Made by a program: the position numbers and the translations under genes
The notes under the pieces: generated by a model
Seen by the model: only the letters and a program-made list of their open reading frames with translations
Database searches by the model: none
What the model was told of the DNA's origin: nothing
Source: Candidatus Micrarchaeia archaeon
Lineage (GTDB): Archaea > Micrarchaeota > Micrarchaeia > Anstonellales > VGKX01
Reading direction: 5' to 3'
Length of the DNA stretch: 64,000 bases
NCBI GenBank assembly: GCA_041650395.1
Contig: JBAZLG010000003.1
Coordinates: forward strand, 182,917-246,916
In this document: positions 8,845 to 44,697 of the stretch, piece after piece
Position numbering within the stretch: the first letter of the stretch is position 1
Layout of the letters: every line of letters starts with the position of its first letter

Positions 8845-8969
8845 GGATAGAGTTGCCCCCGTAGTCCAACCTGGATAGGACGCAAGCCTCCGAATGGCAT
8901 GCCCGCACGTTTGATGCGGCAGACTTGCACAAATGCAAGAAGAAAGTTTGTGGTCCGGGTTCAAATCCC
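8845..8969 (+). tRNA. Candidate intron-containing tRNA-Arg (anticodon CCG). It is 125 nt long, so about 50 nt must be intronic, probably as two introns. No encoded CCA.
   Basis: Acceptor stem GCCCCCG/CGGGGGC. D-arm GUCC-AACCUGGAUA-GGAC. Anticodon stem-loop CAAGC-CUCCGAA. T-arm CCGGG-UUCAAAU-CCCGG at the 3' end. A TATA-like gatatataag sits about 30 nt upstream. The 3' half of the anticodon stem is not contiguous (ACUUG at 8913-8917), and a further 22 nt intervenes before the T-arm. Confidence 0.55.
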
Positions 8970-9009
8970 GGCGGGGGCGTTGACATTTTACTACTCAGCG
9001 GGGCGTGTT

Positions 9010-11061
9010 TTACTTCTTGAGATGGGTTATTGCTGGCCGCAACCCTCTTACAAGCTCCTCAAACGAGGCGTCAAGGAGTTCAGCGTACTTTTTAATATCA
9101 ATTTCCCTCCTGCTTGCCTGCCTGGCAGGCCTGGGGCCGAACAGGGAATAAACAAAGACCGAGACATTTGCCGCATTGGGCTCCTGCCTGAACGCCACCA
9201 CGTGGGGCGCATTTGACACATAATCGCCAATATCCCTTCCAATAGCCTTTGTTATGGCAAAATCTGCCAGGACGAATTCCCCTTCCTTTAGCCTTTTCTT
9301 GAAATCCGCAAGCAACCCTTTCGCCTCCTTTATGCCAGCACATGCATCAGGGGCTGAAAGAATTGCTTTCGCCATCCTCTCCTGGCACTGGACTGCAAGG
9401 GCGCATGAATCCGAATGCCTGACAGCTATTCCTCGCGCCTCCATCCTGCCGTCCTGCATGAGGCCATAATAGTGATTGGCAACTCCTGACGCGTCCTTGG
9501 CTGCTGGGAATACAAGCCTTGAAAAAATGCAATCGAGTTCCAGAGTTATGCCTGTCTCTGCGCTCACTTTCCTGACATAATCCAGATACTGCTTCTCATT
9601 CCCGCCTGACACGAAAACGCTGTCCACCATGCCATACAATGCCTCAAACCCTGCATCTTCGGCAATCTCCTTTGCCATGGAGAGGATATGCCTGCCATAG
9701 AGCATTACGCATTCCTTGCACTCCACATTTGAGAATATGAAGTTGGAGAATCCCAGGTATCCAAAGCAGGTTACTAAGATATTTTTCAGGGCTCTCTGCC
9801 TCATGTCAAACTCCGCCCTCTTAGCCGGGTCAGTTGATGTCTTTGCAAGATGCTTCAGCTCAAGCCTCCGCCTAAGGACTTCCTCGATTCCCTGAGGTAT
9901 TATGCCTTTCCTCTCTGTGCAGGTCTTCCAGCCAGCTTCAGGCACTATCATTGGCTCTTTGCAGCACGTGCATGTGATGGTTTCGGGGCTGATGTTGTAT
10001 TTCACTATGATATTGGGGTACATGGAAGCAAAATCGCATTTTGCCACATTCTCGTAAATCCCCGGAGTCGGATAGATTATGGAGCCGCCCTTGTCCAGCT
10101 GCATGAGGAGCTTGAGGGATTTGGGCCTCTCCATCTCCTTTCGCAAGTCAGGGACAAGGTAGCCATTCCTCTTAGCCGCCCGTATATGAAGATAGGTATT
10201 GAGCCGCCCGGGTGTAATCCTGCAAATTGTGTCAGGCTTTGCGCCCGTCATTTGAGAAAGCTCGATAAGCCTTGCTATCCTGCTTTTCCCTATCCCCAGA
10301 ATCTCCTTTGCCGAGTCTTGCCCGATTGGCAGGTTATGCTCGTTGTAAATGTCGTATCCAATGTCCTTTCTCAGGTCAATATGGGCGCAGGAATCAAAGA
10401 ACACGCCAAAGATATTCCCAAGCGAGCTTGCGGCTCCGTATCGTTTAAGATAAGAGTCCCCGCCATAGGAGAATATCATGTCCGTGCCTGTTTCCCTTAG
10501 AGCCTCTGCCAGCTTGGCAGGATGGATTACCATCTGCGGTTTCCCCTCCAGGACAAGGTTCAAGTATTTGGGATTGACACTTGTAGGGGCTATTGCACCG
10601 CAGGAGAGGGGCGGCAGTTCCAGGGAGCTTGTCTTTTCCATTGATATGAGTTTCCCCTGCTCCGCAACAACGTCGTAGAGCGAGAAGAAGGCGGCATCTT
10701 TTTCCATCACGTACTTGAAATACTGAGGTATTGCCGTTTCGGCTATCTCCTTGATTCCTGGGATAATTTTCATGTCCTTGACTACCCTTTTGTAATTTCT
10801 GGCGTAGTCCACCACTACCTTTATGGCATCAGTCTTGCCCTTCGCGTCCAAGGACACGTACTTCTGCTCTATCTCCGCGTCAAGGACATGGGGGTGCTTT
10901 GAGGCATAATCCTCCGCTTCCTGTGGATTGCCTGACACGAGATAAAACGAATGCCTGAATCTGTCCGAGAGCACTATGTTCCCGCCATCCCGTGTCTTGA
11001 AGCCAAGGCTCACGCTGTCCTGGCCTTCCCGTATATCCAGAAGCCAGCCTTGGAATCGCAT
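9010..11061 (-). CDS. Family-B DNA polymerase-like protein with substituted catalytic motifs (probably an inactivated PolB paralog)
   Basis: Motif A DFASMYPNII is present. The motif B region KNILVTCFGY replaces KxxxNSxYG. The motif C region LYGMVDS replaces YxDTDS. Exo I (FDIET) is not recognisable, with LSCGAIAP at that position. The ATG at 11059-11061 overlaps the upstream gene's TGA stop as ATGA. Confidence 0.6.
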   Translation of the reverse strand: MRFQGWLLDIREGQDSVSLGFKTRDGGNIVLSDRFRHSFYLVSGNPQEAEDYASKHPHVLDAEIEQKYVSLDAKGKTDAIKVVVDYARNYKRVVKDMKIIPGIKEIAETAIPQYFKYVMEKDAAFFSLYDVVAEQGKLISMEKTSSLELPPLSCGAIAPTSVNPKYLNLVLEGKPQMVIHPAKLAEALRETGTDMIFSYGGDSYLKRYGAASSLGNIFGVFFDSCAHIDLRKDIGYDIYNEHNLPIGQDSAKEILGIGKSRIARLIELSQMTGAKPDTICRITPGRLNTYLHIRAAKRNGYLVPDLRKEMERPKSLKLLMQLDKGGSIIYPTPGIYENVAKCDFASMYPNIIVKYNISPETITCTCCKEPMIVPEAGWKTCTERKGIIPQGIEEVLRRRLELKHLAKTSTDPAKRAEFDMRQRALKNILVTCFGYLGFSNFIFSNVECKECVMLYGRHILSMAKEIAEDAGFEALYGMVDSVFVSGGNEKQYLDYVRKVSAETGITLELDCIFSRLVFPAAKDASGVANHYYGLMQDGRMEARGIAVRHSDSCALAVQCQERMAKAILSAPDACAGIKEAKGLLADFKKRLKEGEFVLADFAITKAIGRDIGDYVSNAPHVVAFRQEPNAANVSVFVYSLFGPRPARQASRREIDIKKYAELLDASFEELVRGLRPAITHLKK

Positions 11062-11744
11062 CAGAGCCACCTGGCAAGCGAATGCTGGCTTTGGATTTCC
11101 ACAACGCATTCCGCCTTGCATGGGTGTTTTTGAACCTCAAAATGAAATCTAGGGCGTCCCTTTACCTCTATTATCACTGCCGAATGCTCCCCCAGGTAGG
11201 GATGGATTGGCTGGGGCGAGTTGTCAAACACCACTCCGTGGCAGCTGTTCATGGCGCATAGCCTGGCAAACATGCCTATGGCATGCGTCATTGACATCAG
11301 GCTGGCGTCTTTCTTCCCAGGCTCCTTGTACAAGTCTGATATGGAATCCAAGATAACAAGGTTGAGTCCCGTGCCAAAGTCAAATATGCGCTGCCAGTTC
11401 TGCCGCATTTCCACGGTGTCCCTTGAAAATACCCTCAAGAAAAAGACCGATTCAAGCAGGTTGTCCACGTCCGCGCCCTGCATCTTGGCAGCCTGCACTA
11501 TGCCGTCTATGTCTATAGTCCAGTACCTGTCGTGGTATTCCACGAAGTGAAGGTATAGAATCCTCTTGCCCGGCCTGCATGCCCTCACAAGCATGGCGGT
11601 TGCCAATGGCGAGAGTAGCCGAGGGTCACTGGCGCGCAGCGTGATTATTCCGTCCCCTATGTCCAGGAAACTGTCAAGTGCCCCTATCCCCGTCTTCAAG
11701 CCTTGCCTGCTTGCCTGTTGAGTCCAGTTTTCTTGCTGTTTCAT
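11061..11744 (-). CDS. RadB/KaiC-like RecA-superfamily protein with a degenerate Walker A
   Basis: GIGALDSFLDIG...LVILDSISDLY gives a RecA-fold Walker B, but the P-loop position reads ASDPRLLS with no GKT/S. Translationally coupled to the PolB-like gene by an ATGA overlap. Confidence 0.55.
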   Translation of the reverse strand: MKQQENWTQQASRQGLKTGIGALDSFLDIGDGIITLRASDPRLLSPLATAMLVRACRPGKRILYLHFVEYHDRYWTIDIDGIVQAAKMQGADVDNLLESVFFLRVFSRDTVEMRQNWQRIFDFGTGLNLVILDSISDLYKEPGKKDASLMSMTHAIGMFARLCAMNSCHGVVFDNSPQPIHPYLGEHSAVIIEVKGRPRFHFEVQKHPCKAECVVEIQSQHSLARWL

Positions 11745-11961
11745 CCCTATCACGCTTCAGATAAACAGCTGCGGCAAGCACCATGGCTATGCCTATGTCC
11801 GCCTCGTTTGCCGCGTCTATGGCAGTCCGCCTGTCGCGAATGACTGACATGATTTCATCAAACGCCTTCCTGTCGCTTTTGCCAAGCGCCCTCCCGAATG
11901 CCTCCCACTGGGCTATCTTGGCGTCAATGCGCGCAGTAGCTGACGGTATGCTTCGCCCCAT
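11674..11961 (-). CDS. 95-aa ORF overlapping the 5' end of the RadB-like gene by about 70 nt in another frame (possible N-terminal fragment or frameshift)
   Basis: ATG-initiated ORF with protein-like composition. The overlap suggests either a shadow ORF or a frameshifted RadA-like N-terminus. Confidence 0.25.
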   Translation of the reverse strand: MGRSIPSATARIDAKIAQWEAFGRALGKSDRKAFDEIMSVIRDRRTAIDAANEADIGIAMVLAAAVYLKRDRDETARKLDSTGKQARLEDGDRGT

Positions 11962-12067
11962 CTGAAAACCGCATGAGTTCGCAAGGCTTCAGTTAATAAA
12001 CAGGCAAAGGGGTGGTTTTCCAGTATGTTTCGGTAGGTTAAAATACGCCAAAATCCGTAGTATTTCC

Positions 12068-12733
12068 ATGTGCCTCCGATATGCGTTTAGCGTCATGGAC
12101 AGGGACGAAGTGAAGCAGAGGTTCGCACTGGTTCAGATAGCATACGAGCTTGAAGCCAGGTATAACATAGCTCCAACCCAATCTGTCCCCGCCATATTCA
12201 ACGATTCAAAGAATACGCTGTCTGGCGCACTCTGGGGAATGCCAGCTCAATGGGCAAATGAGCCGGGCAAGCTCCTGTTCAATGCGCGCGCGGAGTCAAT
12301 TGACTCAAAGCCCACATTCAGGCGGCATTTTGAGGAAAGCCGGTGCCTGATGCCTGCCAATGCATTCTACGAGTGGAAACACCCTGAAAAGAGGCCTTTC
12401 AGGTTCTCACTGAAGGATGATGCCATGTTCGCATTTGCAGCCATATACTCAATTGACAAGGAAAGCCAAAGGCGCTCGTGCTGCATGATTACCACGGAAA
12501 ATAATGCCCTTGTGGGCCAGGTCCATAATCGGATGCCTGTTATCCTGCCTCTCATGCGTGAAAAAGAGTTTCTTGATGCCACTCCAAAGGAGGCCAAGGC
12601 CATGCTAGTGCCATTCCCTGACAGCCTGATGGGCATGTATGAGCTTACCTCGCGGATTAACTCGTCAAGGGTGGATTCGCCCGAAATAATCAAGCCCCAA
12701 ACTGAAAAGGGGACATTGAAGGAGTATTTTTGA
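12068..12733 (+). CDS. yedK: SOS-response-associated peptidase (SRAP/YedK/HMCES family, DUF159), abasic-site DNA-protein crosslink protein
   Basis: N-terminal MCLRY matches the MCGRY-type start, with the catalytic Cys at position 2. Conserved ARAES...FRR and YEWK motifs. A TATA-like ttaaaata lies about 28 nt upstream. Confidence 0.8.
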   Translation: MCLRYAFSVMDRDEVKQRFALVQIAYELEARYNIAPTQSVPAIFNDSKNTLSGALWGMPAQWANEPGKLLFNARAESIDSKPTFRRHFEESRCLMPANAFYEWKHPEKRPFRFSLKDDAMFAFAAIYSIDKESQRRSCCMITTENNALVGQVHNRMPVILPLMREKEFLDATPKEAKAMLVPFPDSLMGMYELTSRINSSRVDSPEIIKPQTEKGTLKEYF

Positions 12734-12857
12734 TTGCACTAAATAAGAGACACGCACAGGGCATTTCTGCGGAAATGCCTGCGATGAAGGGGCTTTGTAC
12801 AAAAGGTGAAAGGACAGCAGGATTTGCAGGGGTGTTAAGAATACTGCCATACAAATT

Positions 12858-15593
12858 ATGATTGATGCTATGGAAAATGAGTCGTTAATTAATGAAGACA
12901 AAATTAAACTGCTTGCAAAAAAACAATTGGATCAATATCCTTTAGACAAAGATTTAAGTGCAGAGTGGGATCGGTTCTTGTCTAGTAAATATAATCTACA
13001 ACGTTATAGAGCTCTGGCAAATCTTTTATATAAAAGTTCATTATTAACTCTAAAAAAAGAAACAGAGATTAAAGATAGTGATCAGCGTATTATTCTTTTT
13101 AATAACGCCTATGAAGCAGTAAAACAGGCAGAACTAATTTTTCGAACTATAAACCTTCTTGTTTTAAGTTATGGATGTAGGTCTGTATCCTTACAATTAA
13201 AAATAAAAATTATCTTTGATTCGAACTCTATTTCTATCACTGCTGATTCTTTTAACAAAGAAGTAAATTCGATCATAGATGAAATTAGAATATTCATAAA
13301 TGATTTTGATAAGTATGGAGAAGATATTGCTTCGAAACAAATTCAGATTATTTTGTTATTTGGTTCAGTCATACATTCTCCAGTTATTAAATTGAATAAA
13401 CTTAAAATGTTTAATAAGGCGGAAGAAATAATTCAGTTTATCAAAGAAAATACAGATAAGTTAGATCTGAGATCTGGAAAATATTCTCCATCATTCGAAA
13501 ATACAGCAAAAACAATTTTTGATCAGATACTCTTAGTTAATGCTGAGACTTTGTCCCGAAAAGAACAATCAATAAATGGTTATTCATTAAAAGCGGCAGA
13601 TTATTATCTTGATGTGAGTAATAAAATTGAATCCGAAGCTATCAAAACAGAAGCTCTCCAACATTATTATCGAATTCTGGCTTTTCGTAACAAATATACT
13701 GGTGCAAATAATGATCAACAAAATTTTATTAGTTATATTGACTCTGCGATTGTGACTTCAGAAAAATTCAACCCTAAACAGGCAGTCTTTTTAAAAGGTT
13801 TTAAAAATCAGCATCTTTCAAGATTTAGATCAAGAAGTCTCGAAGATAGAATTGACCTAATTGGGCGAGCGATTGGTTTTTTTAAAATGGCTGGGCCTAA
13901 TCATATATCAGATCTCAAAATATCTAATTTTTATTCATTATATCTACAGTCATTACAATCTGAACTTCTGAATGTTGAACGTTTAAGTTTAATTGAGCGT
14001 GCACTTGTAAATGTTGAGACAACCCCATCAATAAAATCCTTATATCGCATTGAATATAGTGAATTACTACTTCAGTTCCATTTCTTTTCATTTATAAAAA
14101 ATGTTAAAACTATGAATTATCATTCTGCCTTTAAGCATTTGAATGAATTAAATAATCTGGGGGGAAATCGTTCATCAATTAGGTCATATTATTGGATTGG
14201 TCGTATTATTGGTCAATCGTCAAGGGATCAACAGAAAATAAATTTAATTAATTGGAAAGTTGAACTAGAGACTCTTAAGGAAAGTGGTTCGATAGATAAT
14301 CCCAAACTTCGTAATTTCATTGATGATGTCATTTCATATGCTCAACTTGCACAAAACGATTCTTCAGGGATTGTCGAGAAAAAAAGATTAGAGCTAATAA
14401 GTCTGTTTGCTGGTGAACAACTAAATTTGTCTGAAATATACGATATTCGTTCATTACTTGGTTATCCTAAACTTAGTGCGTTGTTACCCAAAAAATTAAA
14501 AGAGCGCATTGAAAAAAACTCTACCATTTCCAATCAAATTTCAGATCCAAATATAAAATTAGAAATTGCCGGATTTTTTAACTATCGATTGATTGGTAAT
14601 TTATTGGACATATTAATTGAAGGTTATTCAAAATTTCTTTATGATGAGGAATGGGAGAAAAAAATAATTGAAATTACCCAAAAAGATCCGGAAAGAATTA
14701 CTATAGGGGATCAATTAAAATTATTAAAAAAATTCTGTCATGAATACTGCCCACTAGAAGGTATGCCGATTGAGTGGTTGGCAGAGCTCGAAGATGATCA
14801 TTTAAACAGTCGAAATTCTATAATCCATGATTTCGAACCCGAAATTGCAAATTTAGAATTGGAACATCTTCAGCAAGCAATTTATTCAATATTAAAATAT
14901 ATTCCATTGCCTCTATATGTAGAAAATAATTCATATTTCTTATTTGAAAAAAAAGAACCCGTAGATCTAAAAATTCAAGATATCCCAGATGGAATCTACG
15001 GTGCTATAATCGCGCCATCTAATGACCGCCCACGTGAACAACAGAAAATTATTTTTGTCTGTAATCTAACTTTGGCAAGCTCCAAACAAATTGGTTATAG
15101 CGAGGGTACCAAAAAAATTCATATTATGCATTACTCAAAAAATAGAGATAATTTTGATGGCACACAATTATTTGAAAAAAAATTGACAATCGATATACCG
15201 ATTGAATTCTGGGCTGAAAAAAATAATGAAAATTTTGATAAGGCATTTATTAAAATTGAAGATAGTGCTAAAAGAGAATTTGGTGAAGCTTATGCAAAAG
15301 ACTATTGTATTTGTAATCAGTTTATAACAGCAACTAGAAAAGCTGCTGATTTAGATGAACATAAACTTATGAATTATATGGAGGGCGCATTATATCATTT
15401 AAGTCGTCATCTTAACTTGAATTATTATACTGGACGTGGATTATTATCAAAAGAAATTATTTTTGGAATAAATAGAGGTCGAATATTGGATTTAAGTAAT
15501 AAAGAAGTGGCTATATTTAAATTTAAAAAAATGAAAAATGTTCTGATAAAAATGAGGGTACGGATTGATACTCCTGATGTTCTATTAAATTAA
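12858..15593 (+). CDS. Large (911 aa) hypothetical protein encoded in a low-GC island, with a single HEPN-like Rx4H motif (SRNSIIHD)
   Basis: About 30% GC against about 57% in the flanks. Single uninterrupted ORF. The only recognisable motif is R-N-S-I-I-H near residue 650. No Walker motifs and no TM. Confidence 0.7.
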   Translation: MIDAMENESLINEDKIKLLAKKQLDQYPLDKDLSAEWDRFLSSKYNLQRYRALANLLYKSSLLTLKKETEIKDSDQRIILFNNAYEAVKQAELIFRTINLLVLSYGCRSVSLQLKIKIIFDSNSISITADSFNKEVNSIIDEIRIFINDFDKYGEDIASKQIQIILLFGSVIHSPVIKLNKLKMFNKAEEIIQFIKENTDKLDLRSGKYSPSFENTAKTIFDQILLVNAETLSRKEQSINGYSLKAADYYLDVSNKIESEAIKTEALQHYYRILAFRNKYTGANNDQQNFISYIDSAIVTSEKFNPKQAVFLKGFKNQHLSRFRSRSLEDRIDLIGRAIGFFKMAGPNHISDLKISNFYSLYLQSLQSELLNVERLSLIERALVNVETTPSIKSLYRIEYSELLLQFHFFSFIKNVKTMNYHSAFKHLNELNNLGGNRSSIRSYYWIGRIIGQSSRDQQKINLINWKVELETLKESGSIDNPKLRNFIDDVISYAQLAQNDSSGIVEKKRLELISLFAGEQLNLSEIYDIRSLLGYPKLSALLPKKLKERIEKNSTISNQISDPNIKLEIAGFFNYRLIGNLLDILIEGYSKFLYDEEWEKKIIEITQKDPERITIGDQLKLLKKFCHEYCPLEGMPIEWLAELEDDHLNSRNSIIHDFEPEIANLELEHLQQAIYSILKYIPLPLYVENNSYFLFEKKEPVDLKIQDIPDGIYGAIIAPSNDRPREQQKIIFVCNLTLASSKQIGYSEGTKKIHIMHYSKNRDNFDGTQLFEKKLTIDIPIEFWAEKNNENFDKAFIKIEDSAKREFGEAYAKDYCICNQFITATRKAADLDEHKLMNYMEGALYHLSRHLNLNYYTGRGLLSKEIIFGINRGRILDLSNKEVAIFKFKKMKNVLIKMRVRIDTPDVLLN

Positions 15594-16050
15594 TTATGAT
15601 TTGAATGTTTGATAATCTTTAACTTAAGTAAAAAATTAAATCACCCTATTTCAACTATTACTTTTTTTTTAAATCATTTAGAGATTTCTTGTTTAATACT
15701 CAGAAAAAATCGAATATACAAATTAGCTTTCATAGGCGTTTATGTTTTATTGCCATAGCAACTATGGGCGAACCTCAAAGCAAATAAACGTGCGGAAAGG
15801 AGCAAATCAAGCGCGTAGGGCATTTTGGCCATATTCATTTTTCATCACTAACGGCGATTATAATTACCCGTCAAATATCACTTTGGCACTTCAGACCGTC
15901 CTCTCTCTGCACATTAATCCCAAATTCTCCATGAAGACTAATTGCATCTCTCTACTTCAATAAGAGCATGAAATGCCTCGCTTTTGCTCTCATTCTCGTT
16001 CTCGTCTTTGTCTTCGTCCTGCCTGCGCTGGTGCACGCAGCCTCAAAAAG

Positions 16051-17076
16051 TCAGAAAACCCGGAAATCGATTACGACCTGCTGGACGTGCGGCGAGAAGG
16101 GCCGCACCACCCGCTTGTTGATTATCTCGAACTTCCTGCCAGCATCTGCACATGCTTTCCCTATTGCCGCAAGCGGCTTTTCAAAGCCTGATTCTATTTC
16201 AGAGAATGAGTAGAGATGTATCATGGCGCCAATTTTTGCGAAACTGATGGCTTCAGGGAGGAAAAGTTCCGCGTCCTTTGGAAGAGGCATGGCAATCCTG
16301 TCATACGCGCCGAGATATTCCCCGCCAAGCCTTCGCACGTCTGCGTGCACGCACCTGACATTTGAAAGCTTGTTGAGCCTTATGTTCCTCTCGAAATATT
16401 CGCATGCCACGGGATTCAGTTCAACGCCGGTTATTTTCGCGCCCCTGCAGAACCTGCCGGCGACAAGCGCGAACGGCCCGCAGCCGGCAAAAAGCACGAG
16501 ATAATTCTCGCCGGGCTTCACCTGCCGCGCTATGCGCATCCTCTCCGTGGCAAGGCGCGGGGAAAAATACATCCTTGCAAGGTCGATTTTCATGCGCGCG
16601 CCGTTTTCCACGTAAAGCGTTTCAGTCCGCTTTTCCCCTGCCACGTGTGAGAATTTCCTCACCCTGTACTCGCCTTCCATCGGGCTTGACTTTGAGAGCA
16701 CCGCCTTGACGTTGTGATGGACAGCAAGCACCGCCTCCCCTATTTTTTTCGCATATTTGGCAATGGAACCTGAAATCTCAAGGACCGCGATGTCGCCTAT
16801 TATGTCAAACGACCTCTTGACCTCATCAAGCTGTTTTGCAGGTATGGAGCCATACAGGGCCTCAAACACGGATTTGGGCTTTGCCTCCTCTTCCTTGAAT
16901 GCGAAATTGCCAAAGGACGCATCAAGCCATTTGGGGATTTCAAACCGCCCCGACACTGGAAAAGAGATTGAACCCGCGGATTTCACCGGCTTGTAGCCGT
17001 GGGCGAAATGCCCGCCGGAAATTAGGAAGAGCTTGAGCCTCTGGGCATTAGCAACCTTTGTTTTGATTCCAAGCAT
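16051..17076 (-). CDS. trm5: tRNA (m1G37) methyltransferase Trm5 / TYW2-like (Met-10+ family)
   Basis: Class I MTase with DIIGDIAVLEI and VLFAGCGPFALVAG motifs typical of the Trm5/Taw2 family. Start set at the internal Met to avoid overlap with the upstream gene. Confidence 0.7.
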   Translation of the reverse strand: MLGIKTKVANAQRLKLFLISGGHFAHGYKPVKSAGSISFPVSGRFEIPKWLDASFGNFAFKEEEAKPKSVFEALYGSIPAKQLDEVKRSFDIIGDIAVLEISGSIAKYAKKIGEAVLAVHHNVKAVLSKSSPMEGEYRVRKFSHVAGEKRTETLYVENGARMKIDLARMYFSPRLATERMRIARQVKPGENYLVLFAGCGPFALVAGRFCRGAKITGVELNPVACEYFERNIRLNKLSNVRCVHADVRRLGGEYLGAYDRIAMPLPKDAELFLPEAISFAKIGAMIHLYSFSEIESGFEKPLAAIGKACADAGRKFEIINKRVVRPFSPHVQQVVIDFRVF

Positions 17077-17101
17077 TGGAAAAGAGCACCTGCGAAACTG
17101 G

Positions 17102-18454
17102 TTACGGGCAGGAGTAGGCCGCAGCCACTGGATTGATATGGTCTGAAGGTATGACAGGAGTGCTTGTGTCCTGCACCGTGTTTTCAAGATAGTTCAGGTT
17201 CAAGAGGAAACTGCACTGCCTGTCCGCGCTGCCATTTGCCGCAAAGCCCGCAAACACGTTCATTTTGGGCACCATGTACTTCTGGCACGAGCCGAACCAG
17301 CCGTTGAATTCGGGATGGATTTGCTGGCCTGAAGTGCTGACAAGCCCATAATCGCACGCCTGTGAAGTGCATGTGCGCGGCATAGAATCAAGCCCGTAAT
17401 AAGCAACGCCAATCACGCCGCTTTGTGCAAGTATCTGCTTGAGCTCGAACACCCTCTGGAACGCGGTTGCCACGTCCTGCTCCGTGTAGGTGCACATGCC
17501 GTCGTCGGACTTGCCCGGGCTTGCGGCAAAGTAATACCACAGTATAGGCTTTCCATATGTCTGGCGAAGGTATTTTGCGAACTGGACGTTTTGCATTATG
17601 GCGATTTCAAGATCGCACGTGCCGGAATAGTTGTTGAGTATGATACCCTGGCCGACAATGTCAACGTACTTGGAATTGTGGCTGCCCCCAGAATCATTGA
17701 GGAAATAATTTATCGTCTTCAAGTCGAGCCTCTGCGCGGCAAGCATTGTCAGGCACTTGGTGCAGTTTGCCTTTACAGCCGCAAGCTGGTCAAGCACCTT
17801 GTACCTGTCGGCATAGCCCGCGTCGACCTCGCTTGAGACTATCACAGGCCCCTCGCCGTCAAGCTCATGCGCTATTGCGCCGCTGGCGCTCGCGTTTATG
17901 TTAAGCCCTGCGCTGTAATAGAGATATACGGGCAACGCGTTCTGGCGCAGGTAGCAGATTGCCATGTCAGCAGACGAGAGCGCCGGCGGGCTTGTCGAGT
18001 TCCCTTTCAGCCAGATTACAGGCATTGTCAGGGAATTGTTGCAGTATGTCTGCGCCCGGGCAAAGTCGGTTGCATTTGGCCCCTGGCCTATCATGAAAAG
18101 CATGGGGAACGAGCCGTCGGAATTCGACGAATCGTTGAGCGCGCTGAAAGTGGAATAGTTCATGCGCGTGAACGAGCAGTTGCCGTAGTGCAGGTTTGAC
18201 GAGAGGCCGAGGAAGCCAGAATCGTTCTTGCACTCGAACACAGTGCATGGCGTCATGTTGCTGTCGGAGCAGACTCGGGTTATGTTGGTTATGTTGAACT
18301 CGACAAGCTTGTCAGGATTGACAGGCCCGCTGACGCAGCCAAGCGAGAGCAGGGCTAAAGAAACAATGGCGGCAAGGAAAATGGCTCGAAGCCACAGCCT
18401 GCCTGCAAAAATTGTCCTGACAGAGTCCATGATAACAATACCTTTATAGCTCAT
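17102..18454 (-). CDS. Secreted or membrane-anchored Cys-rich glycoprotein with many N-x-S/T sequons
   Basis: N-terminal hydrophobic segment AIFLAAIVSLALLSLGC. More than 15 NxS/T sequons. Its ATG overlaps the upstream giant gene's TGA stop as ATGA at 18451-18454. Confidence 0.6.
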   Translation of the reverse strand: MSYKGIVIMDSVRTIFAGRLWLRAIFLAAIVSLALLSLGCVSGPVNPDKLVEFNITNITRVCSDSNMTPCTVFECKNDSGFLGLSSNLHYGNCSFTRMNYSTFSALNDSSNSDGSFPMLFMIGQGPNATDFARAQTYCNNSLTMPVIWLKGNSTSPPALSSADMAICYLRQNALPVYLYYSAGLNINASASGAIAHELDGEGPVIVSSEVDAGYADRYKVLDQLAAVKANCTKCLTMLAAQRLDLKTINYFLNDSGGSHNSKYVDIVGQGIILNNYSGTCDLEIAIMQNVQFAKYLRQTYGKPILWYYFAASPGKSDDGMCTYTEQDVATAFQRVFELKQILAQSGVIGVAYYGLDSMPRTCTSQACDYGLVSTSGQQIHPEFNGWFGSCQKYMVPKMNVFAGFAANGSADRQCSFLLNLNYLENTVQDTSTPVIPSDHINPVAAAYSCP

Positions 18455-21400
18455 TGAGAGAGATTATAATGGCAGTTGGGGCACTCGCCAGTGCCCAGTG
18501 CAAGCGCCCTGCCGCAGCTTGGGCATGAGAAGTGGGTCCTGTCCAAAAGCTTCTTGTGGGAGGACTTGGTGAATGGCTTGATTGGAGCCTTTAACAGGTT
18601 CTTGCCGCTCTCCCCCATGACCTTGCCTATTGCCTCGCCCTTAGTTGCGCCCGTGGCCTCCACGTGGTGCTCCACGTTCTGCTTTATCTCCTTGTATGAG
18701 AACAACGGCCAGAGGAGGGGGACTGCGAAGGCCATCGGCCTGAACCTGCCCTGGAAGCCAAAGCCCGCAAGCTCGTGTTCCCTGTCGCCGAGGTGGAATT
18801 CAGCAAGCTTGTCGCGTTTCCATACGTCCACTGTCGAATCGCGCTGGAAATTGGCCCGCTCGTTCCTGTAATAAAGATTCTTGTAAATGTTAAGCTCCGG
18901 ATTGGCATTGAGCGTCTGGGCAATGCGCGGGTGCATGCGGTCATAACTGTCCTCAAAGTCCTTGAAGAACATGCCCGGCGGGCCGAACTTGTTGACGTTC
19001 TGGTAGTGCACCTTGAACATTTCATAATGCCTCATGGAGCCGCCCGACTGGAAGTAATTGTAGCCGGAGCGGTTGATGTAGGAATAATGGCCCTTTTCAA
19101 AGAACCACTTGTACCATGGAGCGTCAGGGTTCCTGATGTCAGTGCCGTACTTGTCCTCGTAATCCTTTGCAAAGCGCCTCCTGTCATATTCGCCGCTGTT
19201 ATTAAACATGGGCTCGAAAGTCCATGGCAGGGGGGCCTTGAACTTGGTGCCGCCGCCAAGGTCATTTCCGACGTCCCGGTTCACTAGGGAAAATCCTTCC
19301 TCTGTTGAGAACTCGCCCCATCTCCTCGACCGCGGGGCTGCATACCTGTTGAAGCGGTTGAACGACTCCCAGGGGGTCAAAAGCGACATGACAGCCTCGC
19401 CATAGGCTGGGCGCCTTGCCTGCGCCTGGTCGGAAACCACAGGATAGCCAACTGCAAGGGAGAAGAAAGACCTTGTGTGCTGCCCGAATAGCTGGGCAAA
19501 TGGCTTTGTCACCTTTAAGCTCATCTTGTTTATGAAATCCCCGGGCAAGAGGTTGTGGCCGAGGATGATGTTCGGGTTTTCATACATGCCCTGCCCGGTA
19601 TGGTAACCCGTAGCAAGCATCTGGTACATGCCGTAGCTTGAAGAGCCGAAGCGCGGGTCACGCATCTGGCTCGACTCCATTACGTTGTAGAAGTTCTGGA
19701 ACTGCCTGCCCATTTTCCGTGCCATGAGGAATTCGTCGTAATATGACGCGGTCTTTATGCCCTTCTGGACAGAGCGCAGGTCGTCATAAGTCATGTTGTA
19801 ATCGCGCAGGCTTTTCCTGGCCTCGTCCAGTTGTTTCCCTATCTTCGCATGTTCGACAGGGTTCCCGGCACTTGCGCTGTACTTGCCCTGCAATGCAACG
19901 ACATTGTGCTCAAGGGCCTTGGGATCCGTGCCTGCGATCTTGGACTTCAGCCCGGAGAGGACTATTTGGACATCAATGTCGCCATTTTTGACCCTTTCGG
20001 CCAGTTTCTTGCCCTCTGTGGAAGAGAGAGGCGGCAGTTCCGCGTTCCCGCCTTTTGGGAGGTATTTGCCCGAATTGAAGGCGTCCATGTATTGCTGGAG
20101 TATCAGCCTGTTTGCGGCCTGCGTGGCAAAGGAATCCTGCAATGACTTGGTCTTGTTTGAAATGCCGCCAATCATGACAGCTTCCGCGAACAGGCCGAGG
20201 TTTGCTATCTTCCGCGTAATGGAATTGTCCCCGCCCATCTGGGGCGCCTTTTCGCGTATCTGGAGCTTGTCCGAAGTGAAGGCGGCTATCTTATCAGTCC
20301 TTGAAAGGCCGTTAAACTGCGCGAGCGTGGATATGGTGTTGCCGTTTTTGTCCTTCAGGTTCAATGCCTTGACCGCCGCGTCGGTTTTTATCGCCCCGCC
20401 GTCGACGGCATCGGAGAACTGCTGTATGCTGTTTTTCAGCATGGCGACGGCGTTGTCATGGTCGCGCTTGAACGGCTTGTACTTGACCCATTCGCCATTG
20501 TTGTTGAAATACAATTTGCCGTTTAGGACCTTGTCGCCTTCCGCAAGGGACATGCCTGCAAAATAGGGCATCATCTTCATGTCGATGTCCCCGACCCAGA
20601 CGCCCTGGCGCAGCATGCCGCCGGTTATTCCGCGCTTTATTACGTCGGAATAGGCTTCCTCAAACGTCTTGCCCTTGTACCTTGAATCGTCCTTGCCATA
20701 AGCGTCAAACCAGTTCTTGTAGCCCGAGTAAAGCCCGACATTGAACTCCCTCGTGCTGTCAAGCCTCTTGTACAGGTTCTGGTTGCGCGAGTCCAAAACG
20801 CCGACAACCCTGTCAGTGACTCCGTCAAGATAGGCCAGCTGCCTTGCGCGGGATTTCGTCTCCGGAGTGCCGGCATCTGTTCCGGCCGCCACCGCGTACC
20901 TGTTCATTATCAGGCCGTGGCCGGATTTCATTGCCTGGTCCACCCAGCCGTCCCTGCCTATAAGCTTGCCGGCCGCGCCATTGATCCTATCGAATGTCTT
21001 GGAAGCCGCCTCCCTGACGGCAGAATTGTAATCCTTGCCGGATTTCATGGCCATTGCCACTTCGTCCATCATCATAGCAGCCACGGCGCTCTTCCTCTTG
21101 CCGGACAGGGCGTCGTTGTACTGCCTGTTTATCTCGGCCATAGTCTTTTCGGCCAATTCTTCCTTCTTCTTGCCTGACAAGCCGGGCTCGTTGAACGAAT
21201 ATATGCGCGAATATATCTTCCTGTCCGTAAGCGAGGACATTGAAACCGATTTGACGTCCTCGCCGAAAAGGAAGGAGAACTTGTTGGAGAAGCCCTTCAT
21301 CATGTCCGAGAGCTTCTTGTCAATGTTCGCGAGGTCGTCAAAGCCCTTTGAGAGCGAGGACGGGTTCACGAGATTGTCGATTACCTTCATCGTCTTTGCC

Positions 21401-23415
21401 AGGTCGACGGAGCCGCCCCTGGAGGTGTTGACCTTGGATACGAGGGCCGCTGCGAACTTGCCCATGTCAAGCCCGGAACCCTGGGAATTGGCTTTGCTGA
21501 CAAAGCTTCCCATGGTTTTTTGAATTTCATCAAATGCCTTTGACTGGGCAGTAAGGGTTTTTGCCGCAGCAAGGTCGGAGTAGAGTTTGGCGAATTCCTT
21601 GTCAAGGGCGCTTAGTTTCCCCTGGACGGCCTTGCTCGATACTGCTGCGATATAAGCCTGCCTTTGGGCATCCAGGATATTGCGTTCCAGAGACATGAAT
21701 TGTTTCCTGTCGGATGCGCTCATGGAACGAATCAGGTTCCTCTCGTCGCCTGCAAAAATCTCAAGGCTTTTGAGTTTGCGCTCGTATTGCTTTTGATTAA
21801 GCGAACCGCTGTCAAGCTTGCCCTTCAAGTCCTTCTTTAATGCCTCAATCTTGGCTCTCTCCGCATCAAGCAGCTTGTTCCTCTCGCCTGAAACCTGTGC
21901 AAGGGCCACGAGTGCAAGCCTTTCCTTCAGGGCCTTCGTGGCGTCGTCAATCTTGCGCCTCAGCTCTACCACCGGGTCCTTGGCGTCTGCCACCTTGCGC
22001 GTCTTGAAGGACTTGCCATCCACAGTTATCCACTCAAACGGGTTGGCGCCATGGCCCTTGAATATGCCCGTGATGAAATGGTCCTTCTTGCCAAGCACTT
22101 TCTTGAATCCCATGCGCTCTGCCATTTCGACGGCAAACTGCCTGCGTATGTCCTTTTTGAGGCCATGGACAGACCTGCGCGAGGCAATGGCGGAAGCTGT
22201 GTAGAGCACGACCTTGTTGACAAGGGGGACCTTGCCAAGCACGTTGCTGTCGCTGTAAATCATCTTGCCTGCGACCTTGTCAAAGCCATAGGCCTTTGAA
22301 TAATACTGTTTTGTCATGAGATGGGAATTGAGCACGCCCGAAAGGTCAGCGGAGTGCAAAAGAGCCGACTGGAGGTTCTTGTCGCCAAGGCCGCCTATCT
22401 GCTTGAGGTAAAGCTCCCTGTTGAGGGCCGCAAGCTCGTATTTGGAATTGACCTTGTTTGCAAGGTAGCGCATGAGCCTGTCGAGAAGGCCCGTGTCTTT
22501 TACTTTTTCGAGTGCTATCCGCCTTAAAAGGGCCGCCTTTGCGACGTCGGACAGGTTGCTTTGCATGACCTTGTTGACCAGGTTGCGCTTCCCTGCCTCC
22601 TTGCCAAGAAGCATGGCAACGCGGGCATTTGCAAGCCTTAATGCCGCCGACGCCTCGCGAATCTGGCGCTTGTTAAGCCTTAGTGCCATAAGCAGGTTGG
22701 TGCCGACAGTAACCTTGTGCATCTTCGCCTTTTTGCCCTTTGGCAGCCTCGGGGTGGTAATGTCGAAAAGAGACAGGGGGTTCCTGCCGGAATAATACAT
22801 GGAAGCTATGAGAAGCCCTATTATCAGGGATATGGGGAAACAGGCTACTATGTTCGCCGGGTCTGAAACCAGGTTTGCAATTGAGGTGCCTATGGCATTG
22901 ACCCCGACATTGTTCTGGTCGCACACTATTATCGACGAGTCAGCAGGCAGCCTCTTGGGGGCCATATTGTTGCCCGCGTAGGAGACATAGACGGACTTGC
23001 ACGTGCCTGCGAGGCTTGAAGTGCCGATGGTGCATTTTGCCACGCCGTTGGAATCAGTGACGAGGTTCTCGCAGCCCGATATTGCTGCTCCAGTCGAGGG
23101 GTCGTCAAAGTGGAAGTGCAGGGTCTCGCCTGCAAGGGGCAAGACGTCAAATGTCGCAAAGCCGTAAGAGTTTGAAGACGGGTCGCCTGTGCCAGTTGTC
23201 AGGTATTGCTTGTCGTTTTGGAAATCCTGCGAATTGAGCAGGTCAAGTGACGATACATTGACAAAAGTCGCGGCTGCAGTTATCTGGTAGCTTGAAGAAT
23301 TGTAATACAGGCTGATGGTAGTCCGCCCGCATATGTCGCATGGGACATTCTGCCCGAAAGAGGGGTAGAGCAGCAAAGTCAAGACTAAAAGCCCAATTAT
23401 CTTATGTCCCTGCAT
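18451..23415 (-). CDS. Giant (about 1654 aa) membrane protein with signal peptide, Cys/sequon-rich ectodomain, one TM, a very long coiled-coil-rich region and a C-terminal zinc ribbon (CPSCGRALALGTGECPNC)
   Basis: Start set at internal Met 23415 (MQGHKIIGLLVLTLLLYPSFG signal peptide), because the track ORF runs into the leuS 3' end. A TATA-like tttaaaataaag lies about 30 nt upstream on the minus strand. Confidence 0.6.
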   Translation of the reverse strand: MQGHKIIGLLVLTLLLYPSFGQNVPCDICGRTTISLYYNSSSYQITAAATFVNVSSLDLLNSQDFQNDKQYLTTGTGDPSSNSYGFATFDVLPLAGETLHFHFDDPSTGAAISGCENLVTDSNGVAKCTIGTSSLAGTCKSVYVSYAGNNMAPKRLPADSSIIVCDQNNVGVNAIGTSIANLVSDPANIVACFPISLIIGLLIASMYYSGRNPLSLFDITTPRLPKGKKAKMHKVTVGTNLLMALRLNKRQIREASAALRLANARVAMLLGKEAGKRNLVNKVMQSNLSDVAKAALLRRIALEKVKDTGLLDRLMRYLANKVNSKYELAALNRELYLKQIGGLGDKNLQSALLHSADLSGVLNSHLMTKQYYSKAYGFDKVAGKMIYSDSNVLGKVPLVNKVVLYTASAIASRRSVHGLKKDIRRQFAVEMAERMGFKKVLGKKDHFITGIFKGHGANPFEWITVDGKSFKTRKVADAKDPVVELRRKIDDATKALKERLALVALAQVSGERNKLLDAERAKIEALKKDLKGKLDSGSLNQKQYERKLKSLEIFAGDERNLIRSMSASDRKQFMSLERNILDAQRQAYIAAVSSKAVQGKLSALDKEFAKLYSDLAAAKTLTAQSKAFDEIQKTMGSFVSKANSQGSGLDMGKFAAALVSKVNTSRGGSVDLAKTMKVIDNLVNPSSLSKGFDDLANIDKKLSDMMKGFSNKFSFLFGEDVKSVSMSSLTDRKIYSRIYSFNEPGLSGKKKEELAEKTMAEINRQYNDALSGKRKSAVAAMMMDEVAMAMKSGKDYNSAVREAASKTFDRINGAAGKLIGRDGWVDQAMKSGHGLIMNRYAVAAGTDAGTPETKSRARQLAYLDGVTDRVVGVLDSRNQNLYKRLDSTREFNVGLYSGYKNWFDAYGKDDSRYKGKTFEEAYSDVIKRGITGGMLRQGVWVGDIDMKMMPYFAGMSLAEGDKVLNGKLYFNNNGEWVKYKPFKRDHDNAVAMLKNSIQQFSDAVDGGAIKTDAAVKALNLKDKNGNTISTLAQFNGLSRTDKIAAFTSDKLQIREKAPQMGGDNSITRKIANLGLFAEAVMIGGISNKTKSLQDSFATQAANRLILQQYMDAFNSGKYLPKGGNAELPPLSSTEGKKLAERVKNGDIDVQIVLSGLKSKIAGTDPKALEHNVVALQGKYSASAGNPVEHAKIGKQLDEARKSLRDYNMTYDDLRSVQKGIKTASYYDEFLMARKMGRQFQNFYNVMESSQMRDPRFGSSSYGMYQMLATGYHTGQGMYENPNIILGHNLLPGDFINKMSLKVTKPFAQLFGQHTRSFFSLAVGYPVVSDQAQARRPAYGEAVMSLLTPWESFNRFNRYAAPRSRRWGEFSTEEGFSLVNRDVGNDLGGGTKFKAPLPWTFEPMFNNSGEYDRRRFAKDYEDKYGTDIRNPDAPWYKWFFEKGHYSYINRSGYNYFQSGGSMRHYEMFKVHYQNVNKFGPPGMFFKDFEDSYDRMHPRIAQTLNANPELNIYKNLYYRNERANFQRDSTVDVWKRDKLAEFHLGDREHELAGFGFQGRFRPMAFAVPLLWPLFSYKEIKQNVEHHVEATGATKGEAIGKVMGESGKNLLKAPIKPFTKSSHKKLLDRTHFSCPSCGRALALGTGECPNCHYNLSQ

Positions 23416-23656
23416 ATCAGATATAAGATAATTCTTTATTTTAAACCTATGTTTAAGGGGACAAATGCGCCCAATCCATGGCAGGGCGCATGTGTTTAAA
23501 AATGCTTTTGTGTGGAGCGTTACGCATTTAGCCCGAAACCCCGCCCGGCCATGCCGGCCTAAATCAGAAAAAAGCAAAAAACATGCCAAAAAGGCTGCAA
23601 GCGGGTTGCCTGCGCACAGGTAAGCGGCATTTTTAGCCATCATGGCCGCCCGAAAA

Positions 23657-26419
23657 TCAGGCCGAAACAAGTATGGCGCATTTGCCGGGCATGGCATTGC
23701 GTGCCTTCTGCGCCTGTTCCTTGCCTGCCTCCTCTTCAGGGACAAGGCTGACAGGGCAGCCAAATTCCCTTGAATAGAAATCGCACGCGTCCTTGAGAGC
23801 CTCGACCTCGCTTGCGCGCGGGAGGGACTTGTCAAGCCCGCCGATGTTTTTCATGTAGGAAGCCACGAGTTTTGGCACTTCATTGCCATGGCTTCTCAAG
23901 GCAGGGTCTGCCATTGCGGCCTTTATGGCCAAGGAAGGGTTGCGCTCCCTTGCAACTATCGCCTTCAGAACGTATTTCCACTCTGATGCGGCAAACAGGG
24001 TTATGCCTTTGGGCTTGCCTGGAATCTTCAATATGCCAAGAATCTGCTCGATGTCTCCTTTCGACTGGGCCACAAGCTCCTCCATTGCTTCAAGGGACTT
24101 GTCAATGCGCGCCTTTTCCGCTTCAGGGAACGCGGCAAGGGAGACAAACCCTTTCCCGCCGAGTTTCTGCCAGCACTCCTCTGCAAAATGCGGCATTATA
24201 GGCGCTATCGCAGGCACCCAGAGCGAGAAGAACCCGCGCAGGCGCGGCTTGGGGCACCTTTTCATGTACCATGACAGGTCGTTTGAAGTGTTGAAGAAGA
24301 ACTCCTGGCCAAGCTCGCGAAGAGAGAGAGAATCGTAAAGTGCGGGGGCGTTTGCCACGCGCTCGTGCAGCCTGGACATGAGCCATCTTTGTATGAGCGA
24401 GCCCTCGCCTGAATCGCCGGGCGTTTCAGCGCACGCCATGTCAAGAAGCGCAGTCAACTGCCTAAGCCGCGCGGCGACGCCGTTAGCCGCAGTCTGGGAA
24501 AAGTCAGAGTCCTCCTTAAGTTCCGCGCCATTGACCACGGAAAAGCGGACAACGTCCGCGCCGTACTGGCCGATTGCCTTTCTCAATGGCAGGATGTTTC
24601 CCATGGACTTTGACATTTTCTTGCCGTCCATTGTGACAAAGCCGTTTGCGACAATCTGTTTTGGCCAGCCGGACTTGGGGAAAATGGCTACATGGTTGAA
24701 TATGAAGAATGCCAGGTGGTTGTAAATCAGGTCTGCGCCTGAATGCCTTGAATCGAGAGGGTACCAGTAGAGGAATTCCTTCCTTGCGGATTCCATTTCA
24801 GCTGACACCTGCCCGCCCGCCGGCTTCACGCCGAAAAACGCATAGTCGAAGAACTCGTCATTGGCTTTCTCAACCGGCATCGCTTTTACTATATGGGCAA
24901 TAGTGTAGAACGCCATGTAGATTGTGGAATCTGAAAGGGACTCGATTATCTGGGCAGTGTCAAAGGGCAGTTTGGTGCCAAGCCCCTGCGCGCGGCTGCA
25001 CGCCTTTTTTTGCAGCCAGTCGAGCGTATAGTTCAGGTCAGCCCTGGACTTTTCAGGCAGTATTGACATGGAATCCAGGCACTCGTGCGCGAGTTTTTTC
25101 CATTCAGGGTCTCCATAGTCTATGAACCACTGGCCTGTGACGTTTTTCACAACAATGCGCGCGCCGCACCTGCAAAAGACAGGCGAATTGGCTATTTCAT
25201 GGAACTTGAGCGCGAACCCCTGCTCCAGCAATTCCTTTTTCACTTCGTCCTTTGCTATCGAGACCTTCATTCCCTTGAACTTGCCAACTGCCATGATGCC
25301 TTCGTGGGCCTCTTTCCTGTATATTTCCTTTGTGGCTTCCTCGGCCCTGGGGTCGTTTTGGTCCTTGACGCCCATCTGTTCCACGATTTCCTTTGCGGGG
25401 AACTCGCCAAATCCTGCCAGTGAAATGACGTTTTTCATGGTTATTTCCGGCAGGTTGGCGTCGCGAAGCGCGAGATAGTCGTAAGGCGCGTGGGCAGGCA
25501 CGCTCATTACAATGCCCGTCCCGTGCGCCGGGTCGACGAAAGTCGCGGATATGATAGGGACCTTCTCGCCTGTGGCAAGGTTGGTAGCCTTTGACCTTGA
25601 AAGCCTGTCAAACCCGATTTCCTCGATGACTTTCAAGCCCTCGAACTGGTTTGAGAAATATTCGACCTGGTTTGTCGAAATGTAATAAGTTGAGCCCGCA
25701 AACGACACCTTGGCATATTTGGCGTCGGGGTGCGCCCAGATGTTTGTCACGCCATAGACCGTTTCGGGCCTGTAAGTGCTTGCGAGCAGGAACCCGTCGC
25801 CATACGCGAACTTGACAAGGGTTACCTCCTCAAGCGTAGGGTCGACGTCCCCCCTGGTGTCGTGCGCGGATACGGAATTGTTGTCCGCCGGGCACCACGG
25901 GACCGGGTGCGAGCCTTTCTTTATGTAGCCCTTTTTCTCAAGCATCCTAAACTGCCATTCAATGAACCTGTTGAACGCCGGGTCGTTTGAATAGAACTTC
26001 CTGCGCCAGTCAATCGAGAACCCGATTTCTTTCATGCCAAGCTCTATCTCGTTTGAGAAGTGCATGACAAGGGAAATGGGGTCAGTGAGTTTGGCGGCTG
26101 TATCAGCGGGTATGCCGTAAATCTTGTCAAAAACGCCGAGTATGTCCGGGTCTTTTTGCGCAATCCGCTTTGCCATGGCGAGTATGGGCGTGCCCGTGAC
26201 GTGGAATCCCATGGGGAAAAGCACGTTGAATCCTTTCATGCGCTTGTATCTCGCGTAGATGTCGGTAGTGGTGTAAGTCCTCGCATGGCCGATGTGCTGG
26301 GGCGAATTGGGGTATGGGAACGCCGCTGTAAGGTAGAATTTGGGCATGCTTGAAGGGGAAGGGTTGAAGATGCCCCCGTCCGCCCATTTTTTCTGCCAAG
26401 TCAAAGCTATCTCGTCCAT
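23657..26419 (-). CDS. leuS: Leucyl-tRNA synthetase (archaeal type)
   Basis: Class I aaRS signatures: a HIGH-like PNSPQHIGHARTY region and KMSKSMGN. About 920 aa with an editing-domain-sized insertion. Confidence 0.9.
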   Translation of the reverse strand: MDEIALTWQKKWADGGIFNPSPSSMPKFYLTAAFPYPNSPQHIGHARTYTTTDIYARYKRMKGFNVLFPMGFHVTGTPILAMAKRIAQKDPDILGVFDKIYGIPADTAAKLTDPISLVMHFSNEIELGMKEIGFSIDWRRKFYSNDPAFNRFIEWQFRMLEKKGYIKKGSHPVPWCPADNNSVSAHDTRGDVDPTLEEVTLVKFAYGDGFLLASTYRPETVYGVTNIWAHPDAKYAKVSFAGSTYYISTNQVEYFSNQFEGLKVIEEIGFDRLSRSKATNLATGEKVPIISATFVDPAHGTGIVMSVPAHAPYDYLALRDANLPEITMKNVISLAGFGEFPAKEIVEQMGVKDQNDPRAEEATKEIYRKEAHEGIMAVGKFKGMKVSIAKDEVKKELLEQGFALKFHEIANSPVFCRCGARIVVKNVTGQWFIDYGDPEWKKLAHECLDSMSILPEKSRADLNYTLDWLQKKACSRAQGLGTKLPFDTAQIIESLSDSTIYMAFYTIAHIVKAMPVEKANDEFFDYAFFGVKPAGGQVSAEMESARKEFLYWYPLDSRHSGADLIYNHLAFFIFNHVAIFPKSGWPKQIVANGFVTMDGKKMSKSMGNILPLRKAIGQYGADVVRFSVVNGAELKEDSDFSQTAANGVAARLRQLTALLDMACAETPGDSGEGSLIQRWLMSRLHERVANAPALYDSLSLRELGQEFFFNTSNDLSWYMKRCPKPRLRGFFSLWVPAIAPIMPHFAEECWQKLGGKGFVSLAAFPEAEKARIDKSLEAMEELVAQSKGDIEQILGILKIPGKPKGITLFAASEWKYVLKAIVARERNPSLAIKAAMADPALRSHGNEVPKLVASYMKNIGGLDKSLPRASEVEALKDACDFYSREFGCPVSLVPEEEAGKEQAQKARNAMPGKCAILVSA

Positions 26420-44692: not shown

Positions 44693-44697
44693 ACATC

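Follow-up and report, generated by a model that had tools for sequence, protein, structure and literature searches.

The 64-kb window analysed here (64,000 nucleotides (nt) of contig JBAZLG010000003.1 from a Candidatus Micrarchaeia archaeon, assembly GCA_041650395.1) contains a 3.1 kb island of low guanine-plus-cytosine (GC) DNA, here called island 1, which encodes a single open reading frame (ORF) of 911 amino acids (aa). The island was acquired horizontally and recently, into a variable slot with an intron-containing tRNA gene on one side and trm5 on the other, and its protein product is without detectable relatives among approximately 15 billion public proteins. The favoured reading of this orphan gene is that it encodes a conflict or defence protein of the single-gene type that arrived by horizontal transfer, to which a probability of roughly 0.35 is given.

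The island is compositionally foreign. The GC baseline consists of 56 one-kb host windows with a mean of 0.542 and a standard deviation (sd) of 0.022, against which the 1-kb windows spanning 13001–16000 have a GC content of 0.29–0.31 (z −10.4 to −11.4). A cumulative-walk analysis identified change-points at 12834 and 15974. The original prediction, made by a reader of the sequence, had described a low-GC island of this size at 12840–15970, and composition-based island detection agrees with it, with a GC content 10–11 sd under that of the host that is far from unremarkable. The orphan ORF exhibits GC contents of 0.41, 0.28 and 0.20 at codon positions 1, 2 and 3, against approximately 0.53, 0.41 and 0.60 in the neighbouring genes for SRAP, Trm5 and the family-B polymerase (PolB). 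The trinucleotide correlation between island 1 and the host genes is approximately 0, and the codon correlation of the orphan ORF with the host is 0.06. The import is considered recent due to the GC content of 0.29 compared to 0.54, the GC content at third codon positions (GC3) of 0.20 compared to 0.60, and codon and trinucleotide signatures that do not resemble those of the host.

The non-coding tail that follows the orphan ORF had been described as approximately 370 nt of AT-rich DNA, which holds for its first part only. The AT-rich portion (GC 0.19–0.25), in which a T9 run at 15662–15670 resembles an oligo-T terminator, ends at approximately 15740, and positions 15741–15970 have a GC content of 0.41. 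The tail did not match any Rfam family at E ≤ 1 and contains no convincing small gene, with all of its ORFs being 73 aa or shorter. A sigma-70 and terminator scan of the tail returned hits at the level of shuffled sequence, although this type of scan is unsuited to an archaeon.

The orphan ORF represents a real gene, or at least one that was real until a very short time ago. At the base composition of the island, stops make up 8.6% of random codons and the probability of finding no stop in 911 codons is approximately 10^−35.5. The remaining five frames contain 58–125 stops each and stay open for 75 aa at most; these two results together identify the ORF as a genuine coding sequence. As originally described, the ORF is single and uninterrupted, running from 12858 to 15593 with no frameshift or stop. 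The JGI and Logan gene callers place the start at the second ATG (12870), which gives a protein of 907 aa. A TATA-box-like element, TTAAGAATA, precedes the gene and may act as the promoter of an mRNA with a short leader or none. An independent Logan assembly (SRR8542065, 73-kb contig) exhibits 100% identity with the window across 22.7 kb, both junctions of the island included, and an assembler-specific chimera is therefore unlikely.

The position of the island was compared with the corresponding locus in relatives. The Trm5 protein of the window is 100% identical to an NCBI entry from a Candidatus Micrarchaeia metagenome-assembled genome (MAG), and the closest other Trm5 proteins exhibit 70 and 67% identity, indicating that this lineage is thinly sampled. 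The two relatives compared, GCA_027346555 (L003) and GCA_964752355 (L006), are accordingly distant (Trm5 67–70% identical). Both are colinear with the window on either side of the locus. On the Trm5 side the shared order is leucyl-tRNA synthetase, a protein of approximately 1700 aa, a protein of approximately 450 aa and Trm5, the second and third of these measuring 1686 and 449 aa in the comparison with the relatives. On the other side lies the intron-containing tRNA, which ARAGORN missed at 8855–8979 and which stands beside SLT_2 in both relatives as well, followed by an inositol phosphatase, Maf and Hjc. The interval between Trm5 and the tRNA is occupied in the relatives by one S-adenosylmethionine-dependent methyltransferase (L003 11032–11949; L006 2114–2971). 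In the window, this interval is a 7-kb block (8990–16050) encoding PolB, a 212/230-aa protein, DUF8156, SRAP and the orphan gene, and no remnant of the methyltransferase was found there between Trm5 and the tRNA. The slot between Trm5 and the tRNA is therefore variable.

The original prediction placed the insertion after the SRAP gene and proposed a check of whether relatives lack the insert between SRAP and trm5. The island does adjoin SRAP and is missing between Trm5 and the tRNA in L003 and L006, but this description of the insertion is too narrow, as SRAP and PolB are also missing from that locus in both genomes. Scans for a genome close enough to show an empty site between SRAP and trm5 yielded no such genome: the GTDB scan gave one genome at 70% Trm5 identity, and the metagenome scan gave none. 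Within the 7-kb block the foreign composition is limited to the orphan gene, and the PolB–SRAP part has host-like GC. No integrase or transposase was found near the island, no direct or inverted repeats were found flanking it, and no repeat of the 3' end of the tRNA, which is 3.9 kb from the island, was found, in line with what had been noted from the sequence. An imperfect hairpin, GGCATTTC-TGCG-GAAATGCC, is located at 12753–12790 just 3' of the SRAP stop codon. A 14-nt near-repeat, CGCRYAGGGCATTT, occurs at 12753 and 15812 with 12 of the 14 positions matching, so that its copies bracket the island; the 15812 copy, in the tail of the island, is a near-copy of the left arm of the hairpin (CGCGTAGGGCATTT). 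This near-repeat is probably due to chance.

The orphan protein founds its own family, in that nothing detectable by sequence resembles it. Scanned in full against Pfam, NCBIfam and PADLOC, the protein gave no significant hits (best ASH2L-WH, E 0.06), and PADLOC-DB v2 returned 0 families. A PDB sequence search with the whole protein and two segments gave no match at E ≤ 10. The only match in PHROGs covers 25 residues and is to a function-unknown family. A word-indexed search of 5.8 billion protein clusters identified only the protein itself, as did an exhaustive phmmer search of 1.84 billion representatives, with no relative at E ≤ 0.001. The HEPN-like segment discussed below yielded no homologue at E ≤ 10. 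In phage and plasmid collections, tblastn yielded at most a single match, at E 9 and attributed to chance; scanning viral and metagenome contigs with peptide patterns produced no match, and there is no paralogue within the window. The suggestion that the protein is unrecognisable and may represent a new family is well supported by these searches, and none of the profile and sequence searches matched it to a known non-defence family.

The features of the island and its surroundings are given in Table 1. The gene has the look of an expressed one, and its product is predicted to be soluble and mostly alpha-helical. No transmembrane segment was predicted (maximum Kyte-Doolittle 19-residue mean 1.44) and no signal peptide was identified. 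A Walker A motif ([AG]x4GK[ST]) is absent and there is no Pfam match to a nucleoside triphosphatase (NTPase), which confirms the initial report of neither P-loop motif nor transmembrane segment. A STAND/Avs-type NTPase sensor is ruled out by the same two results. The protein contains no internal repeat, and its helical region does not match a TPR or Sel1 profile. Local GC maxima of 0.38–0.42 are present inside the 0.29-GC gene at 14700–14850, corresponding to the RNSIIH region, and at 14950–15100, corresponding to the start of the C-terminal domain (residues ~698–748). These maxima may mark the most constrained residues.

Table 1. Features of island 1 and the flanking locus (positions in the window).
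Feature	Position	Strand	Description
Intron-containing tRNA	8855..8979	+	125 nt; Rfam tRNA 48.5 bits; far boundary of the 7-kb block
SRAP (left neighbour)	12068..12733	+	PF02586, E 1.5e-51; host-like GC
Low-GC island	12834..15974	.	GC 0.29 at 12850-15740, 0.41 at 15741-15970; genome 0.54
TATA-box-like element TTAAGAATA	12835..12843	+	~27-35 nt upstream of ATG 12870; read from sequence
Orphan ORF	12858..15593	+	911 aa; NCBI MFA5106476.1 'hypothetical protein WC506_05975' [Candidatus Micrarchaeia archaeon]
N-terminal region, residues 1-187	12858..13418	+	Predicted mixed helix/strand; no recognisable motif; low-confidence model
Residues ~188-559	13419..14534	+	Solenoid-like run of ~18 predicted helices, each 13-24 residues long; may serve in binding or sensing
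Residues ~560-690	14535..14927	+	Candidate HEPN-like helical domain
R652-N-S-I-I-H657 codons	14811..14828	+	Only Rx4H of the protein
C-terminal region, residues 700-911	14955..15590	+	Predicted strands, then helices; no match
Non-coding tail	15594..15974	+	AT-rich to ~15740, then 0.41-GC DNA reaching the Trm5 stop region
Trm5/TYW2 methyltransferase (right neighbour)	16051..17187	-	341 aa from ATG 17076; convergent with the orphan gene

The one motif singled out in the original prediction was RNSIIH, taken as the catalytic signature of HEPN ribonucleases (RNases). The motif is present, at R652-N-S-I-I-H657, and a polar residue (N, D or H) directly after the Arg is typical of catalytic HEPN domains (PMC3710099). 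The Asn at this position is mildly suggestive of HEPN, as a post hoc reading of the sequence. In 20,000 shuffles of the orphan protein, the more specific patterns RNxxxH and R[NHDQ]x[hydrophobic]2H appeared in 5% and 2%, respectively. The motif is located approximately 93 residues into a helical segment of approximately 130 residues, with one more helix after it. Among the Foldseek lists are the HEPN toxin chains 8xdj_A and 7ae6_B, although all have E values of at least 0.5 and a superposition of R652/H657 is not visible from the lists. HEPN chains presumably number on the order of a hundred in the fold library, a small fraction of it. With 1wwp, 1jog, Swt1 and MtlR counted as HEPN members (PMC3710099), HEPN chains, judged against this rough estimate, look over-represented in the fold-search list, which derives from a poor model. 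Residues 560–690 may be a HEPN-type domain, at somewhat less than even odds. The protein has the motif of the HEPN superfamily and lacks profile similarity to it; it is not classed here as a HEPN member, although it may work like one.

A number of results weigh against the HEPN assignment and the defence role built upon it. The bare Rx4H is at chance level and carries no weight for HEPN, as it appeared in 52% of the same shuffles and Rx4-6H in 89%, and it was picked out by a reader who was hunting for motifs. No HEPN-clan or Abi profile matched the whole protein or short segments of it. Profile scans with 15 overlapping segments of 45–344 aa, run at E ≤ 10 for those of 45–251 aa, likewise found no HEPN, Abi or other defence match; they returned two PADLOC candidates only, PDC-M34B and Aga_Unknown, over 35–39 residues at 14–15 bits and outside the motif. 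The fold check that had been proposed was of little help to the assignment. AlphaFold was run on single sequences with no homologues, and the predicted local distance difference test (pLDDT) score was 34 for the full-length model and 50 for a model of residues 545–700, with RNSIIH in low-confidence coil in both. Foldseek analysis of the domain model against the PDB gave no match below E 0.5, and the top 60 fold matches of the full-length model, which resembles a generic helical solenoid, include no HEPN chain. The searches gave no homologue that would show the R and H residues conserved. The immediate neighbours of the orphan gene are housekeeping or repair genes and not defence genes, and no partner gene such as an antitoxin is visible beside it.

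A second low-GC island is present in the window at 43880–46346, between FEN1 (42830–43867) and a Whirly-domain gene, with a GC content of 0.30–0.35 (z approximately −9). This island encodes three genes. The first, on the forward strand, encodes a 270-aa HEPN/AbiV-like protein with a Pfam HEPN match that is right at the cutoff (E 1.9e-4). The second, on the reverse strand, encodes a 196-aa RelA/SpoT protein resembling small alarmone synthetases (Pfam 1.2e-12; PADLOC candidate PDC-S33, 2.6e-5), and the third, also on the reverse strand, encodes a 352-aa protein with no match. The content looks like toxin- or defence-type cargo from these profile matches. The two islands, which are 31 kb apart, exhibit a trinucleotide correlation of 0.93–0.95 and a codon correlation of 0.90, and are possibly from the same donor. 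DPANN archaea are reported to favour compact single-gene systems (PMC12988326). A conflict or defence role is the likeliest class for the orphan protein on the basis of this preference, the recent transfer into a variable slot, and a second island with HEPN/AbiV-like and RelA/SpoT-like genes.

The closest functional analogues would be HepS and the TPR-fused HEPN families (LA2681-like, C6orf70). HepS is a 218-aa single-protein HEPN abortive-infection anticodon nuclease from the Gifsy-1 prophage of Salmonella (PMC13043305; PDB 9oik), in which oligomerisation joins two motifs and binding of the trigger opens the site (PMC13043305). A mechanism for the orphan protein can be proposed by analogy with HepS. 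The protein would be made constitutively and held inactive until a trigger, a viral component, is bound by the helical-repeat part (residues ~188–559), by the terminal domains or by both. The HEPN-like domains (residues ~560–690) of two copies would then pair, and R652, N653 and H657 from the two chains would form a metal-independent RNase site. This site would cut tRNA, rRNA or mRNA, and the growth of the infected cell would stop. A protein of this kind would represent a new family of large single-chain archaeal immune proteins, composed of a helical-repeat sensor, a highly divergent HEPN RNase and an unmatched C-terminal domain, and originating from an unsampled AT-rich donor; in this complete form the proposal is unlikely.

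Like HepS, the orphan protein comes from a lone gene, without a partner, on DNA acquired by horizontal transfer, and it contains one Rx4H per chain (R100–H105 in HepS) located approximately 100 residues into the domain, which in the orphan is a candidate only, with one helix after it. Unlike HepS, it is 911 aa in length, with approximately 560 residues before and 220 after the candidate domain. The two proteins have no sequence similarity, and the orphan, which is known from sequence alone, is hosted by an archaeon with no prophage around the gene. The TPR-fused HEPN families LA2681-like ('Bacteria > Archaea') and C6orf70/DUF4209 consist of helical repeats followed by HEPN with a conserved Rx4-6H and have a predicted role in conflict (PMC3710099). 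The orphan protein shares the order of helical repeats and then a candidate HEPN domain, but it lacks any HEPN Pfam match and any TPR or Sel1 match, and contains an extra C-terminal domain of approximately 220 aa. The HEPN toxins of single- and two-gene systems, of the 8xdj_A and 7ae6_B type, resemble it in the RN-x3-H motif and in their location on AT-rich mobile DNA. These toxins are 130–400 aa in length and recognisable by Pfam or PADLOC, whereas the orphan matches none of these profiles and has no adjacent nucleotidyltransferase antitoxin. Generic low-GC orphan-gene islands share with island 1 a sharp compositional break, absence from relatives, a variable slot beside a tRNA and a gene with no assigned function. 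Island 1 differs from these in having no integrase, att repeats or further genes, and a 900-aa protein without a relative lies at the extreme end of what is called an orphan. The low-GC orphan-gene island is already a known kind of element, and it is the protein family that is new.

The alternative that competes best with a defence role traces the gene, as cargo or as a leftover, to an unknown virus or plasmid belonging to DPANN archaea or to the organisms that host them. The gene would then encode, for example, a structural, replication-associated or anti-defence protein, and RNSIIH would be fortuitous. The composition is typical of mobile DNA, a lack of database relatives is common for archaeal virus genes, and the chance-level motif, the absence of a HEPN profile match and the generic helical solenoid of the full-length model all fit such an origin. 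However, the gene stands without any other gene of viral or plasmid type and without an integrase or att repeat, the short PHROGs match indicates no function, and a lone intact 2.7-kb ORF in 30%-GC DNA suggests use by the cell. This origin is possible but, on the whole, unlikely.

A very recent neutral acquisition, in which the gene was real in its donor, has no role in this genome and is heading to decay, is improbable. Reduced DPANN genomes turn over such islands, and the lack of amelioration (GC3 0.20), the occurrence in one genome only and the absence of partner genes speak for it. On the other hand, useless DNA of 3 kb is rarely kept by small genomes, and the gene has neither frameshift nor stop in 2.7 kb, is preceded by a suitably spaced TATA-like element and has an oligo-T run past its stop codon. 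A role as a symbiosis factor of an episymbiotic Micrarchaeon, directed toward its host cell, is more improbable still. Large lineage-specific proteins with a presumed part in host contact are numerous in DPANN genomes, and solenoid-like helical repeats would suit protein binding. The protein is probably cytoplasmic, however, because it has no signal peptide or transmembrane segment, and the gene is foreign in composition and missing from the nearest relatives, which have the same lifestyle.

An assembly or binning artefact, that is, a chimeric join of low-GC DNA into a Micrarchaeia contig, would be in keeping with the abrupt GC change at both borders and with metagenome data, but is very unlikely given that the island lies in the interior of two contigs, of 73 and 376 kb, has host-like DNA syntenic with relatives on both flanks, and is identical in the Logan assembly through both junctions. 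A Cas13-like or other CRISPR-associated HEPN effector, to which the original prediction had compared the protein on account of its motif, is rejected: the protein has a similar length (~900 aa) and, if its motif is real, similar HEPN-type chemistry, but it contains a single Rx4H/Rx4-6H and not two, matches no Cas family in PADLOC, Pfam or NCBIfam, has no cas gene called near it and neither a CRISPR array nor any tandem or spaced direct repeats within the window, and Archaea are reported to lack type VI CRISPR (PMC12988326).

Few defence systems are known from DPANN archaea, and nearly all candidates are unvalidated (PMC12988326). If the gene does encode a HEPN-type defence protein, it would give this group an RNA-targeting immune protein, encoded by a single gene, of a new architecture. 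It would also imply that such genes reach tiny genomes via very recent transfer from unsampled donors, and would be one example of how episymbionts with reduced genomes equip themselves with compact systems of one gene. If the HEPN or defence assignment is wrong, a long intact gene without relatives still marks unsampled archaeal mobile-gene space. The practical value is limited by a single occurrence in one uncultured MAG with no homologues for comparison.

Several of the neighbouring genes exhibit features of their own. PolB (9010–11121, reverse strand) is atypical, as only residues 285–695 match the short NCBIfam 'type B DNA polymerase' model (235 bits, cutoff 516). No exonuclease-domain Pfam match is listed for this protein, and its motif C reads YGMVDS and not YGDTDS. 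The best matches of PolB are to polymerases of Leptospira LE1-like phages (26–31% identity) and of haloarchaeal plasmids (31–35%). PolB may be non-replicative or inactivated, and may form a repair module with SRAP. Beyond Trm5, a 1794-aa ORF (called as 1729 aa) on the reverse strand at 18451–23835 contains a terminal CxxC...CxxC motif resembling a zinc ribbon, and a 450-aa protein encoded at 17102–18454 on the same strand is Cys- and Asn-rich with an N-terminal hydrophobic segment. Neither has a Pfam match, and both are syntenic in the relatives at 57 and 62% identity, respectively, identifying them as lineage-specific core genes.

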